64,000 bases of DNA from Thermodesulfobacteriota bacterium. Its GTDB lineage: Bacteria; Desulfobacterota_D; UBA1144; Nemesobacterales; UBA2774. Position 1 is the stretch's first letter. Every line of letters begins with the position of its first letter. Below the pieces are notes generated by a model, which saw only the letters and a list, made by a program, of their open reading frames with translations, searched no databases and was not told where the DNA came from. Both the position numbers and the translations under genes were made by a program. Of the stretch, positions 35,632-59,539 are shown piece after piece. Where the stretch lies: positions 374,828 through 438,827 of the forward strand of contig OZ244197.1 of assembly GCA_965216785.1 (NCBI GenBank), written 5' to 3'.

Positions 35632-36162
35632 TCAATACCCTTCGAGTATATATTTAACTATCTCTTTAGCCAAACCTTCATAAATATCCTTTGCCAAAAA
35701 GCCCATAGAGCTAAACCCGTTTACTTCTCCAGAGGATATTTCATCGCCGGTAGCCTTATTAACCAAGGCTAACTGGACTGTTACCGAAACCTCTCCGAAT
35801 TTTACTCCGCCGCCTTCATAAGAAATATCTGTGCTCGGTCTGTATTCACTTACCTCGCCTAAAACTACTATAGTATCCTCTGCAGGAATATTTTCAATTG
35901 CCCCAAACTCCACTTCTTTGAATTTATCCTTCGTAGCAAGCAGCGCTGCCGACTCTGCCGGGATTTTCGATAGCGCCTGTTCTGGAAAATCGACTATTTC
36001 AGTTACAAACTTATCGAACTGTACGGCCTGGAAACTGCTGAGCTTTTCTTTAGAAGGCTTAAAGTAAGATGTTGTTTTAATGCTCGCGCAGCCACTAAAC
36101 ATCAGAGCCAAAAAGAACAGCGAACATGCGGCATAGTATGAGCGGTAATTTCTATCTTTCAT
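35632..36162 (-). CDS. hypothetical lipoprotein
   Basis: Start moved to ATG 36162 (MKDRNYRSYYAACSLFFLALMFSGCAS, AAGGAGGA RBS upstream); lipobox Cys. Confidence 0.55.
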   Translation of the reverse strand: MKDRNYRSYYAACSLFFLALMFSGCASIKTTSYFKPSKEKLSSFQAVQFDKFVTEIVDFPEQALSKIPAESAALLATKDKFKEVEFGAIENIPAEDTIVVLGEVSEYRPSTDISYEGGGVKFGEVSVTVQLALVNKATGDEISSGEVNGFSSMGFLAKDIYEGLAKEIVKYILEGY

Positions 36163-36276
36163 AATTTCGTGCTCCTCCTTATAAGACAAGTAGTATAAAA
36201 TAGCATACTTCTTCTACTTGATAAACATCAAATCTTAATATTCTGTTATCACAAATGCGCTACGTGAAAAATTTAC

Positions 36277-36322
36277 TGTACAAAATTTGTCACTATTGTA
36301 CAACTTTTGCGAAAATTGTCAC
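36277..36322 (+). promoter_or_regulatory. direct repeats TGTACAA...TTGTCAC x2, candidate enhancer-binding-protein sites
   Basis: TGTACAAAATTTGTCAC (36277-36293) and TGTACAACTTTTGCGAAAATTGTCAC (36297-36322), 120-170 bp upstream of the sigma-54 promoter. Confidence 0.35.
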
Positions 36323-36444
36323 ATCAAACGTGCCTTTAAGGCTTTTTCAAAGCCACTGTATTTTGCTGAAATTTAGTTCAAATTTTAATATTATCATATT
36401 ATATCAGGGGGTTATAAGCAGGAGGCTCTGAAATACACCGAATT

Positions 36445-36460
36445 TGGCACGTGGCTTGCA
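36445..36460 (+). promoter_or_regulatory. sigma-54 (RpoN) promoter, -24/-12 elements TGGCACG-N4-TTGCA
   Basis: Sequence TGGCACGTGGCTTGCA matches the sigma-54 consensus exactly in the GG-N10-GC core; about 43 bp upstream of pilin ATG 36503. Confidence 0.6.
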
Positions 36461-36502
36461 AAATATCTAGTCAAACTCAAAATCTTTTAGGAGGTAGTAG
36501 AT

Positions 36503-37102
36503 ATGTTAAGGAATATACTGAGAAAGAAAAAAGGCGAGAAAGGGTTTACCCTTATCGAGCTTTTGGTTGTTGCAGCGATCATCGGCATCCTGCTCGCAAT
36601 CGCTATCCCTAACCTTATAAAGGCAAGAATATCCGCAAACGAGGCAAACGCAAGAAAGGCCTTGCAGACCCTTAGAGACGCGGAAGGGGAGTATTTCGAG
36701 CAAGATCTTAACGATGATGGTGAGAGAAACTACACCGGATTTATTGGGGATCTCAGCACTGCTGAATCACTCCGTAATCCGGAAGGAACAAGTGATGAAG
36801 AGGACGCACTCATAGATTCAAGCTTTGAGGGTGCGGACGATGGAGAAGATCCCGCTGCGGCAGGCTGCGCGGACTCAAAAGCCGGGTACTGCATAGGCTG
36901 GGATGCCGCTACCATCGAGGCAGCTGCAGGTAACCTTGATGATTTCGGATGGGAAGCTTCTATGACAAGTTTCCGTAAGACAGGTAGAAAAGACTTCGCG
37001 GTTTACGGAGACGGCGTTATAAGGTGCACAGTTACCGGAGCCACCAACTCAGGCGATCCTGGTGACTTTAATGCCGATCGTACAACCGGCGCTTGCGACT
37101 AA
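36503..37102 (+). CDS. type IV pilin (PilA-like prepilin)
   Basis: 199 aa; basic leader ending KG then FTLIELLVVAAIIGILLAIAIPNL (prepilin peptidase site, Glu at +5); C-terminal Cys residues; GGAGG RBS 8 nt upstream. Confidence 0.85.
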   Translation: MLRNILRKKKGEKGFTLIELLVVAAIIGILLAIAIPNLIKARISANEANARKALQTLRDAEGEYFEQDLNDDGERNYTGFIGDLSTAESLRNPEGTSDEEDALIDSSFEGADDGEDPAAAGCADSKAGYCIGWDAATIEAAAGNLDDFGWEASMTSFRKTGRKDFAVYGDGVIRCTVTGATNSGDPGDFNADRTTGACD

Positions 37103-37156
37103 TAATTTTAAGAAAAAGTTAGTTCAATGTAAAGAGTACAAAATGTTTACTATAAA

Positions 37157-37181
37157 ACAGCGGGGTTAGCCCCGCTGTTTT
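37157..37181 (+). terminator. intrinsic (Rho-independent) terminator after pilin 1
   Basis: Perfect hairpin ACAGCGGGG-TTAG-CCCCGCTGT followed by TTT and preceded by AAAA, 55 nt after the pilin 1 stop. Confidence 0.7.
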
Positions 37182-37302
37182 ATCATCGCCCAATTGGTAC
37201 ACAAAGTAGAAATTACTACTTTGATCACTTGCTTTATCAAATAGAATTTCCTGTACGCATACTGCACAATTAAATTGTAATTACGAGTAGGAGCATACTA
37301 AA

Positions 37303-58171: not shown

Positions 58172-59539
58172 ATGGCTAGAGCTACCAAATTACGGGAAAA
58201 ATCCCCAGTAGAAGAAAAGGTACGGGAAGAAAAAGTGCAGGGGAAAAAAGAACAATCGGAAAAGGAAGTTGTAAAAGAATCCAAACAGTTCCTTAACCTT
58301 AACGAGCTTAGAAACAGAAAGAGCGCAGAGCTTATGAAAATGGCGCGCGATCTTGAAATAGAAGAAGTTTCGCGTATGACCAAGCAGGATATCACGTACG
58401 CGATACTGAAAGCCCAGAGTGAAAAAGAAGGGGTTATTTTCGCTGAAGGTGTGCTCGAAATACTCTCAGAGGGTTACGGTTTCCTGCGCTCGCCAAAATA
58501 TAGCTATCTACCCGGCCCTGACGACATTTACGTCTCAAAATCGCAGATTCGCTCATTTAACCTCAAGACCGGAGACACTGTAGGCGGACAGGTAAGGCTC
58601 CCTAGGGAAGGCGAGAAAAACCTTGCGCTTCTTAAGATCGAGGAAGTAAACTTTGAATCCCCAGAGGTATGCAGAGAGCGGATCGCTTTTGAAAACAGGG
58701 TTCCACTGCACCCTGAGGAGAGAATTAATCTTGAATACGACGCCAATGAATTCTGCAGCCGTGTGCTGGATCTTTTTATTCCGATCGGTAAGGGCCAAAG
58801 AGGGCTTATTGTGGCGCCTCCTAGGACCGGTAAGACAATACTTCTTCAAAGAATAGCAAACGCGATAACCAAGAACAACCCGGATGTAGCGCTCATAGTG
58901 CTGCTGATTGACGAGCGCCCCGAGGAAGTAACCGATATGGACCGCCATGTGGTAGGCGAGGTCGTGAGCTCAACGTTCGATGAGCCAGCGCAGAGGCACA
59001 TTCAGGTCGCGGACATGGTGCTTGAGAAAGCCAAGAGGCTTGTAGAGCACGGAAAGGACGTCGTTATACTGCTGGATAGTTTGACAAGGCTTGCCAGAGC
59101 AAGCAACACAGTCACTCCCGCGAGCGGAAGGGTGCTGTCCGGAGGTATGGAAGCAAACGCTCTACAAAGACCTAAAAGATTTTTCGGCGCGGCCAGAAAC
59201 ACCGAGGAAGGCGGCAGTCTGACTATCATAGCGACTGCTCTTATCGACACCGGCAGCCGTATGGACGAGGTGATCTTCGAGGAGTTTAAAGGTACGGGTA
59301 ATATGGAAGCGTATCTTGACAGACGCCTTGCCGACAAGAGGGTATTCCCGGCAATCGATATACAGCGCTCGGGTACGAGGAAAGAAGAGCTTCTACTCTC
59401 TGAAGAGGTTCTCAATAAAGTCTGGCTATTGCGTAAGGTGCTTAGCCCGATGAATACGATTGAGGCTATGGAGTTTCTGCTCGATAAAATGAGCGGGACC
59501 AAGTCCAATAAAGAATTCATGAATATGATGAACTCATAA
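58172..59539 (+). CDS. rho: transcription termination factor Rho (with ~38-aa K/E-rich N-terminal extension)
   Basis: 455 aa; N-terminal helix bundle and OB fold ([15 protein letters not shown]), RecA-like Walker A PPRTGKT, Walker B LLIDE. Confidence 0.95.

Follow-up and report, generated by a model that had tools for sequence, protein, structure and literature searches.

The window analysed here, the whole stretch of DNA of 64,000 nucleotides, carries two tandem type IV prepilin genes on its plus strand, in surroundings that are otherwise devoted to housekeeping. The neighbouring genes encode NADH dehydrogenase, GyrB, PheS, SecDF, Tgt and DapB, together with SucD, isocitrate dehydrogenase, an AsmA-like protein, GreA, CarB, ArgS and TonB/ExbB, as well as RuvABC, Rho, GGT and NadABC. 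Since all other sizeable open reading frames (ORFs) of the window belong to this housekeeping set, the pilin pair stands isolated, with no pilus machinery around it. A tRNA scan of positions 1-64000 yielded no tRNA gene, and an Rfam scan of the 64 kb gave no match to any Rfam family. The immediate gene order, which is kept in close relatives, comprises BirA, a small ORF, a TPR protein and a lipoprotein, followed in the divergent direction by pilin 1, sometimes by pilin 2, and then by an ABC transporter. A region of 340 bp separates the divergent lipoprotein gene from pilin 1. The features of this region and of the pilin genes are as follows, with coordinates referring to the window.

36188-36227, minus strand: conserved block AAGTAGTATAAAATAGCATACTTC...TTGATAAACA, unchanged across six loci and still discernible in more distant loci
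36278-36292, no strand assigned: dyad 1, GTACAA-AAT-TTGTCA, matching TGACAA-N3-TTGTCA at 10 of 12 positions and aligning with perfect dyads of relatives
36298-36312, no strand assigned: middle dyad, GTACAA-CTT-TTGCGA, weak (8 of 12), with better copies in the closest relatives
36307-36321, no strand assigned: dyad 2, TTGCGA-AAA-TTGTCA (9 of 12), with the conserved right half AAAATGTCAC, starting 29 bp after dyad 1
36402-36414, plus strand: putative IHF-like site TATCAGGGGGTTA, one mismatch away from WATCAANNNNTTR, in which CA-N5-TTA is invariant in six loci
36445-36460, plus strand: sigma-54 promoter element TGGCACGTGGCTTGCA, TGGCAC-GTGGC-TTGCA, the unique exact consensus match, conserved in relatives
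36446-36447 and 36458-36459, plus strand: the -24 GG and the -12 GC of this element
36489-36494, plus strand: ribosome-binding site AGGAGG of pilin 1, part of an AGGAGGT that is invariant in a six-locus alignment
36503-37102, plus strand: pilin 1, a type IV prepilin of 199 amino acids, assigned by Pfam N_methyl, homologues and matches to solved structures
37152-37183, plus strand: intrinsic terminator hairpin after pilin 1, with a 14-bp stem, the loop UUAG and a U-rich tail
37251-37266, plus strand: decayed sigma-54-like element, CTGTAC-GCATA-CTGCA, aligning with an intact element of locus L086
37303-37899, plus strand: pilin 2, a paralogue of 198 amino acids, 62% identical to pilin 1

The type IV prepilin N-terminal methylation motif is recognised by Pfam in both ORFs. 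Pilin 1 has a 14-residue leader, the processing site G/FTLIELL, four conserved Cys and a mature protein of 185 residues. It has 3941 homologues, the best 120 of which are 60-100% identical to it over the full length; the organisms named among these 120 are metagenome-assembled genomes of Candidatus Dadabacteria, Thermodesulfobacteriota or 'Deltaproteobacteria'. Comparison with solved structures returned type IV major pilins exclusively, Geobacter PilA-N and Myxococcus PilA (8tj2) being among the best matches (in the N-terminus). Pilin 1 is probably the major pilin, and its strong ribosome-binding site, its own terminator and the abundance of the family in sequence databases argue for a major rather than a minor subunit. 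The terminator hairpin has a folding energy of -23.9 kcal/mol (z = -5.1), none of 200 shuffled sequences folding as well; a consensus terminator scan overlooked it, the stem having taken up part of its T-run.

Two properties of the family deserve mention in their own right. The C-terminal domains of major pilins usually diverge quickly, but this family is conserved along its whole length (60-84% identity in many species), which is unusual for a major pilin. Its four Cys are invariant or nearly so, and a DFGW motif is invariant.

On the opposite side of the intergenic region, the block at 36188-36227 is probably a sigma-70-type promoter (TTATCA-16 nt-TGcTATTTT) of the lipoprotein/TPR operon; a consensus promoter scan of the region did not flag it. 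It shares the intergenic region with the pilin promoter but lies outside it. The lipoprotein gene (35632-36189, minus strand) most likely starts at the ATG at 36162, which has the ribosome-binding site AAGGAGG and is followed by a protein with the lipobox FSGC; this ATG lies downstream both of a TTG at 36189 and of the gene-caller start in locus L001 (equivalent to 36230 of the window). The lipoprotein belongs to no Pfam family, and its operon and the pilin are in synteny in every close relative.

The sigma-54 promoter and its conservation

Within the TGGCAC-N5-TTGCW of the element at 36445-36460, the spacing between the GG and GC doublets is exactly 10 bp, and the ATG of pilin 1 at 36503 follows the element after a gap of 42 nt. 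On both strands of the 64 kb window, this consensus has a single exact match where 0.03 are expected (three of 100 shuffled sequences gave one), and the window holds no other site with fewer than two mismatches. The initial annotation had placed an RpoN -24/-12 promoter at these coordinates, in front of the pilin genes; the coordinates are exact, and the element is kept in relatives. The placement holds for pilin 1, whose promoter is intact, but not for pilin 2, whose element is decayed and has no dyad (see below). From the position of the -12 element, transcription is predicted to start near 36471, which would give a 5′ untranslated region of ~32 nt with a strong ribosome-binding site. Sigma-70-like hexamer pairs are also present in the region (7, compared with 2.9 expected from shuffled sequences; for example at 36366-36394), so a second promoter may exist.

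Conservation was analysed in 29 full-length loci of the family, taken from species-representative genomes, plus three closer relatives taken from assemblies. In 22 of these loci, TGGYAY-N5-TTGC precedes the first pilin gene at 52-77 nt from the start codon. Counting all pilin copies, 34 such elements were found before pilin genes in 24 related loci of the Dadabacteria/Thermodesulfobacteriota type, the distance from the start of the element to the start codon being 52-77 nt for first-copy and 34-51 nt for second-copy pilins. The 5-nt spacer and the flanks vary freely among the 34 promoters. An alignment of six intergenic regions shows separate conserved islands in otherwise diverged sequence, the pattern expected of a promoter in use. 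On the pilin side, the islands are dyad 1, the right half of dyad 2, CA-N5-TTA, TTGGCAC-N5-TTGCA and the ribosome-binding site AGGAGGT; on the lipoprotein side, they are the ribosome-binding site and the likely promoter block of the divergent gene. As a separate observation, two loci (L023 and L031) have TGGCAY-N5-TTGTA together with perfect upstream dyads: at L023:2925-2945 and L031:2948-2965, the -12 GC has become GT (TTGTA for TTGCA) while the dyads are kept, which makes these promoters candidates for naturally weakened or variant sigma-54 promoters.

The second pilin gene presents a different picture. Its sigma-54-like element aligns with TGGCAT-ATATA-TTGCA in L086 (compare L086:3089-3404 and L007-L012), the -24 GG having become TG in the window, and the 200-bp spacer before pilin 2 (37103-37302) contains no dyad. 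Second-copy pilins of 11 relatives have an intact TGGYAY-N5-TTGCN at 34-51 nt before the ATG, and 10 of these 11 promoters have their own dyad, with at least 10 of 12 matches, about 130-140 nt further upstream. Judged against these orthologues, which have kept both elements, the pilin 2 promoter is decayed here, having lost its sigma-54 element and its dyad. As the gene also lies behind a strong terminator, pilin 2 is probably expressed only by read-through or weakly.

The upstream dyads and the activator

Upstream of the promoter, the heptamer TGTACAA occupies 36277-36283 and recurs at 36297-36303; TTGTCAC occupies 36287-36293 and recurs at 36316-36322. All four copies lie 123-168 nt before the -24 element. 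The only two copies of AAWTTGTCAC in the window are the ones found here, 29 bp from each other (0.22 occurrences are expected, and none of 100 shuffled sequences contained two). The initial annotation had described two TGTACAA...TTGTCAC direct repeats 120-170 bp upstream of the promoter. Their presence and position stand, but the two units are unequal in length (TGTACAA-N3-TTGTCAC and TGTACAA-N12-TTGTCAC), and the reading as direct repeats was abandoned for inverted half-sites of a dyad, because relatives have perfect palindromes at the same alignment columns. The palindrome at the columns of the first repeat is, for example, TGACAAATTTTGTCA in L085, and dyad 1 aligns column for column with the perfect dyads of L085 and L086. 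Read in this way, TGTACAA corresponds to a mutated left half-site and TTGTCAC to the conserved right half-site of a dyad whose consensus in relatives is TGACAA-WWW-TTGTCA.

The array at 36278-36321 thus contains five half-sites, 9-11 bp apart, its dyads starting 138-167 nt upstream of the -24 element; the centre of dyad 1 is ~186 nt upstream of the predicted transcription start. The middle dyad starts 20 bp after dyad 1 and overlaps dyad 2 by one half-site. At the corresponding offset (-148), the closest GTDB relatives have TGACAAATATTGGCA in L004, with 11 of 12 matches, and a copy with 9 of 12 in L006. Within the window alone, dyads this weak (up to 3 mismatches) are not above chance, with 8 found and 4.55 expected; they gain significance because perfect dyads of related genomes align at these positions.

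Across these genomes, a dyad with at least 10 of 12 matches lies within -260 to -40 of 32 of the 34 promoters, and in 19 of these it is perfect (12/12). The expectation that sites of the enhancer type would be found 120-170 bp upstream is therefore supported. Dyad density is 5.5 per kb in the promoter regions and 0.04 per kb elsewhere in the same loci, an enrichment that is partly circular since the consensus was derived from these loci, the metagenome scan described below being the independent test. In 11 related promoters a dyad starts ~166-168 nt upstream of the T of TGGCAC, and a second dyad lies 29-33 bp from the first in L003, L004, L005, L007, L010, L012 and L016. The dyads keep within a limited range of distances (-103 to -175) from the -24 element. 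In relatives, the promoters of second-copy pilins have their own dyad with no lipoprotein gene nearby, which indicates that the dyad belongs to the pilin promoters.

Between the dyads and the promoter lies a possible IHF site (36402-36414), its centre ~63 nt upstream of the predicted start. L083 has a perfect match, TATCAATGGGTTA, and CA-N5-TTA is invariant in the six-locus alignment; among the 34 promoters, CAR-N4-TTR is found at -38 to -40 in 10, the IHF-like site being conserved mainly among the closest relatives. Most of the 34 promoters have a GTTAY core (36410-36416 of the window) at the same offset, ~33 nt before the T of the -24 element. It is commoner across promoters than the full IHF consensus, and may represent either an independent element or the 3′ half of an IHF site.

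No gene for an activator lies nearby. A Pfam scan of 51 ORFs of the window detected no domain of an activator, RpoN, a histidine kinase or pilus assembly proteins, and six-frame searches of the window and the 29 family loci found no GAFTGA-type, Walker A (GESGTGKE), RpoN-box or HisKA signature. Two candidates were discarded, namely a GAFSGA match in L024, which lies inside no ORF and is attributed to chance, and an activator-sized ORF of 455 amino acids at 58172, which is Rho. Likewise, the Dadabacteria-type loci examined show no linkage between the pilin and an activator gene. The earlier statement that the window lacks pilR/pilS, rpoN and pilus assembly genes is thus in line with both the signature and the Pfam searches, and a window with no activator, rpoN or assembly gene implies regulation in trans.

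Which regulator uses the dyad was approached through metagenomes, scanned with a DNA pattern alone, namely TGACAANNNTTGTCA, a gap of 125-155 nt and TGGYAY-N5-TTGC, with no protein constraint. At least 120 loci have this combination of dyad and sigma-54 motif, and a type IV pilin ORF follows in 87 among the 120 matches listed. Among these, 82 of the 87 pilins lie outside the Dadabacteria-type family and five inside; the other families represented in the matches listed include gamma/beta-proteobacterial (AYQDYT), Desulfobacterota-like (PNFIAYRNK) and Geobacter-like (PQFSAYR). In 21 of the matches listed, a REC/Sigma54_activat/HTH_8 gene encoding 430-470 amino acids is located directly upstream on the same strand, and in 20 of these 21 its end is 0-280 nt from the dyad; considering only the listed pilin loci with at least 1.4 kb of upstream sequence, the proportion with an upstream activator is 14 of 43. 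One locus (L188) runs from the activator (pilR) through the dyad and the promoter to two pilins, pilB, pilC and pilD, and another (L207) has a Geobacter-like pilin with the same dyad downstream of the activator gene. Among the matches listed, second dyads lie 20-23 or 30-32 bp from the first, 20-23 bp being commonest, and the 20- and 29-bp spacings of the window match these values. In the pilB<>pilA locus of Pseudomonas sp. App30, TGACAAAAAATGTCA lies 90 nt upstream of the sigma-54 promoter.

The occurrence of the dyad with many pilin families, together with an activator gene directly upstream in pilR-pilA arrangement, points to TGACAA-WWW-TTGTCA being the common PilR box. For the window, a PilR orthologue acting in trans is the most likely regulator predicted from these patterns. 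The suggestion of PilS/PilR-type control in trans thereby gains support, the same dyad being found in 21 listed activator-pilin loci, including L188 with its pilBCD genes, and no activator being present in the window. NCBIfam contains no PilR model, and the pilA-adjacent activators score below the cut-offs for AtoC, NtrC, ZraR and others.

Sites of other activators were also considered. FleQ recognises GTCA...TGAC, NorR GT-N7-AC, GlrR TGTC-N10-GACA and NifA TGT-N10-ACA, and the dyad is unlikely to be a site for any of them because the orientation or spacing of the half-sites differs. Two further observations come from the same material. A GC-rich gammaproteobacterial pilS-pilR-pilin locus (L057:2700-2900) has TGACGC-N3-GCGTCA twice, 21 bp apart, a variant box that keeps only the outer TGAC...GTCA of the dyad. 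Matches with dyad and sigma-54 motif but no pilin behind them (L103:1112-1269, L113 on the reverse strand, L158, L134, L141, L168 and L180) could be further members of a PilR regulon or chance; in L103 and L113, two contigs with no relation to each other, the promoter is followed after 25 nt by the same conserved ORF of 89 amino acids. L158 carries a membrane protein of 599 amino acids.

Interpretation and relation to known systems

Taken together, these data are most convincingly explained by a complete sigma-54 control region, served by a PilR-type activator in trans, that drives pilin 1. The N-terminus of pilin 1 is most similar to the major pilins of Geobacter and Myxococcus, whose genes depend on RpoN and PilR (PMC2725144, PMC11841059), which speaks for PilR/sigma-54 control. 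By analogy with the established behaviour of NtrC-family activators and sigma-54, a PilR-type response-regulator enhancer-binding protein, with its gene at another place in the genome, would occupy as dimers the array at 36278-36321, ~150-190 bp upstream of the transcription start. The half-sites lie roughly one helical turn from each other. The bound dimers would assemble into an AAA+ ring, and looping of the DNA, with a bend in the AT-rich spacer that IHF may produce at 36402-36414, would carry this ring to the polymerase. The sigma-54 RNA polymerase would wait in a closed complex on TGGCAC-N5-TTGCA until ATP hydrolysis by the activator opened the promoter. Initiation near 36471 would then yield a mostly monocistronic pilin 1 mRNA ending at the hairpin at 37152-37183, and read-through or a weak promoter would be the sole source of pilin 2. 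This scheme implies that pilR and rpoN are present in the source genome, which we infer.

Several features could be read otherwise. The activator using the dyad might be another enhancer-binding protein of the NtrC family, not a PilR orthologue, and might respond, for example, to a different signal. Such a reading would fit the lack of an activator gene linked to the pilin in Dadabacteria-type loci and the lack of an NCBIfam model with which PilR orthology could be scored; moreover, pilus expression in Myxococcus also receives input from NmpR, a second regulator of the NtrC-like type (PMC11841059). It is nonetheless improbable, given that 21 independent loci among the matches listed, with pilins of several families and including one complete pilR-pilA-pilBCD cluster, have the identical dyad between pilA and an activator gene, so that a conserved DNA-binding specificity of PilR is the simplest reading.

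Doubt can also be cast on the promoter itself, since the sigma-54-type promoter of Neisseria pilE is reported as not used. The element of the window could similarly be an inactive relic, with the pilin transcribed from a sigma-70 promoter, to which the surplus of sigma-70-like hexamer pairs (7 against 2.9 in shuffled sequences) would lend itself. However, no sigma-70-like site is conserved in the alignment, whereas the -24/-12 element and the dyads form conserved islands in many species-level genomes and at two paralogous promoters. Decay is, moreover, visible where it has happened, at pilin 2 (GG mutated, dyad lost), which indicates that the intact copies are under selection, and a relic is accordingly very unlikely. 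Even less credible is the view that the dyads are operators, for a repressor or an activator, of the divergent lipoprotein/TPR operon and no enhancer for the pilin. Dyad 1 lies upstream of the probable divergent promoter, the conserved block, at a distance of only ~50 bp, and the lipoprotein-TPR-pilin gene order is conserved, but the dyad also occurs at second-copy pilins and at pilin promoters of unrelated bacteria that have no such divergent operon, and its distance to the -24 element (-103 to -175) is constrained as for an enhancer. The dyads may still have a dual role, serving both the pilin and the divergent operon. Control of pilin 1 by sigma-54 and a PilR-type activator thus remains the preferred explanation, and it would extend classic RpoN/PilR pilin control to an uncultivated Candidatus Dadabacteria/Thermodesulfobacteriota lineage in which housekeeping genes surround the pilin gene and regulator and assembly genes are remote. 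In practical terms, TGACAA-WWW-TTGTCA combined with TGGCAC-N5-TTGCA provides a sharply defined operator sequence that can be used to annotate major pilins, to find the PilR regulon and to read pilus expression in metatranscriptomes of these organisms.

A broader proposal can be put forward only tentatively. PilR might recognise TGACAA-WWW-TTGTCA almost universally, using it as its operator at gamma/beta-proteobacterial, Desulfobacterota/Geobacter-like and Dadabacteria-type pilin promoters alike, with the Dadabacteria having an unlinked PilR and two separately enhanced paralogous pilin promoters, the second of which has decayed here and left a read-through gene. If this were true, PilR regulons would be predictable across phyla, and the two separately enhanced promoters of Dadabacteria would constitute a possible pilin-choice system. 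The understanding of how sigma-54 or PilR work is unchanged.

The enhancer and IHF architecture of NtrC-type promoters has its paradigm in glnAp2 and nifH. The pilin locus resembles it in having at least two dyads 100-200 bp upstream, whole helical turns apart (20-23 or 29-32 bp), and in the AT-rich IHF-like element between the dyads and the -24/-12 element, which here is putative and has one mismatch. Pilin genes that depend on RpoN and PilR have long been known from Pseudomonas, Geobacter, Myxococcus and others (PMC6058289, PMC2725144, PMC11841059, PMC3333781). A literature search linking Dadabacteria with sigma-54 or pili found no paper.

The Pseudomonas pilA gene likewise has a -24/-12 promoter before a major pilin gene and an upstream PilR-binding region with TGTC elements; pilSR is not adjacent to pilA, and the activator is likewise unlinked here. 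PilR sites of P. aeruginosa have been described as TGT-N11-ACA plus TGTC/GTCT elements (PMC6058289, PMC8035640), a wording that, compared by description, differs from the TGACAA-N3-TTGTCA found here. The search for the sequence of PilR sites returned verbal descriptions of this kind only (TGT-N11-ACA, TGTC/GTCT), and the explicit operator TGACAA-WWW-TTGTCA is not stated as such in the openly accessible literature searched. The Pseudomonas dyad is at -90, compared with -138 to -167 here, and the present organism belongs to an uncultivated Dadabacteria/Thermodesulfobacteriota lineage.

In Geobacter sulfurreducens, the RpoN promoter of pilA was mapped by 5′-RACE and PilR is its activator (PMC2725144), and ihf mutants of Geobacter lose the pilA transcript and the PilA protein (PMC7962754). 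The N-terminal helix of the pilin studied here is nearest to Geobacter PilA-N among solved structures. Unlike in Geobacter, where pilR is immediately upstream of pilA, the activator gene is unlinked here and the pilin lies among housekeeping genes; in addition, Geobacter PilA is of the truncated type, whereas the present locus has two tandem paralogues and a full-length mature protein of 185 residues. In Myxococcus xanthus, whose PilA (8tj2) is among the best structure matches, PilR is required for pilA expression (PMC11841059) and pilSR is clustered with pilA, in contrast to the unlinked arrangement seen here. NmpR of Myxococcus binds two paired dyads, GCGCA-N5-TGCGC, upstream of sigma-54 promoters and feeds into pilus expression (PMC11841059); the sequence of a Myxococcus PilR dyad is not given in the literature searched. 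Overall, the predicted locus would be ordinary in its mode of control and would differ from the known systems only in its lineage, its unlinked regulator and its tandem paralogues, the explicit and widely shared dyad being a mildly new product, given that the published wording for P. aeruginosa is different (PMC8035640, PMC6058289).
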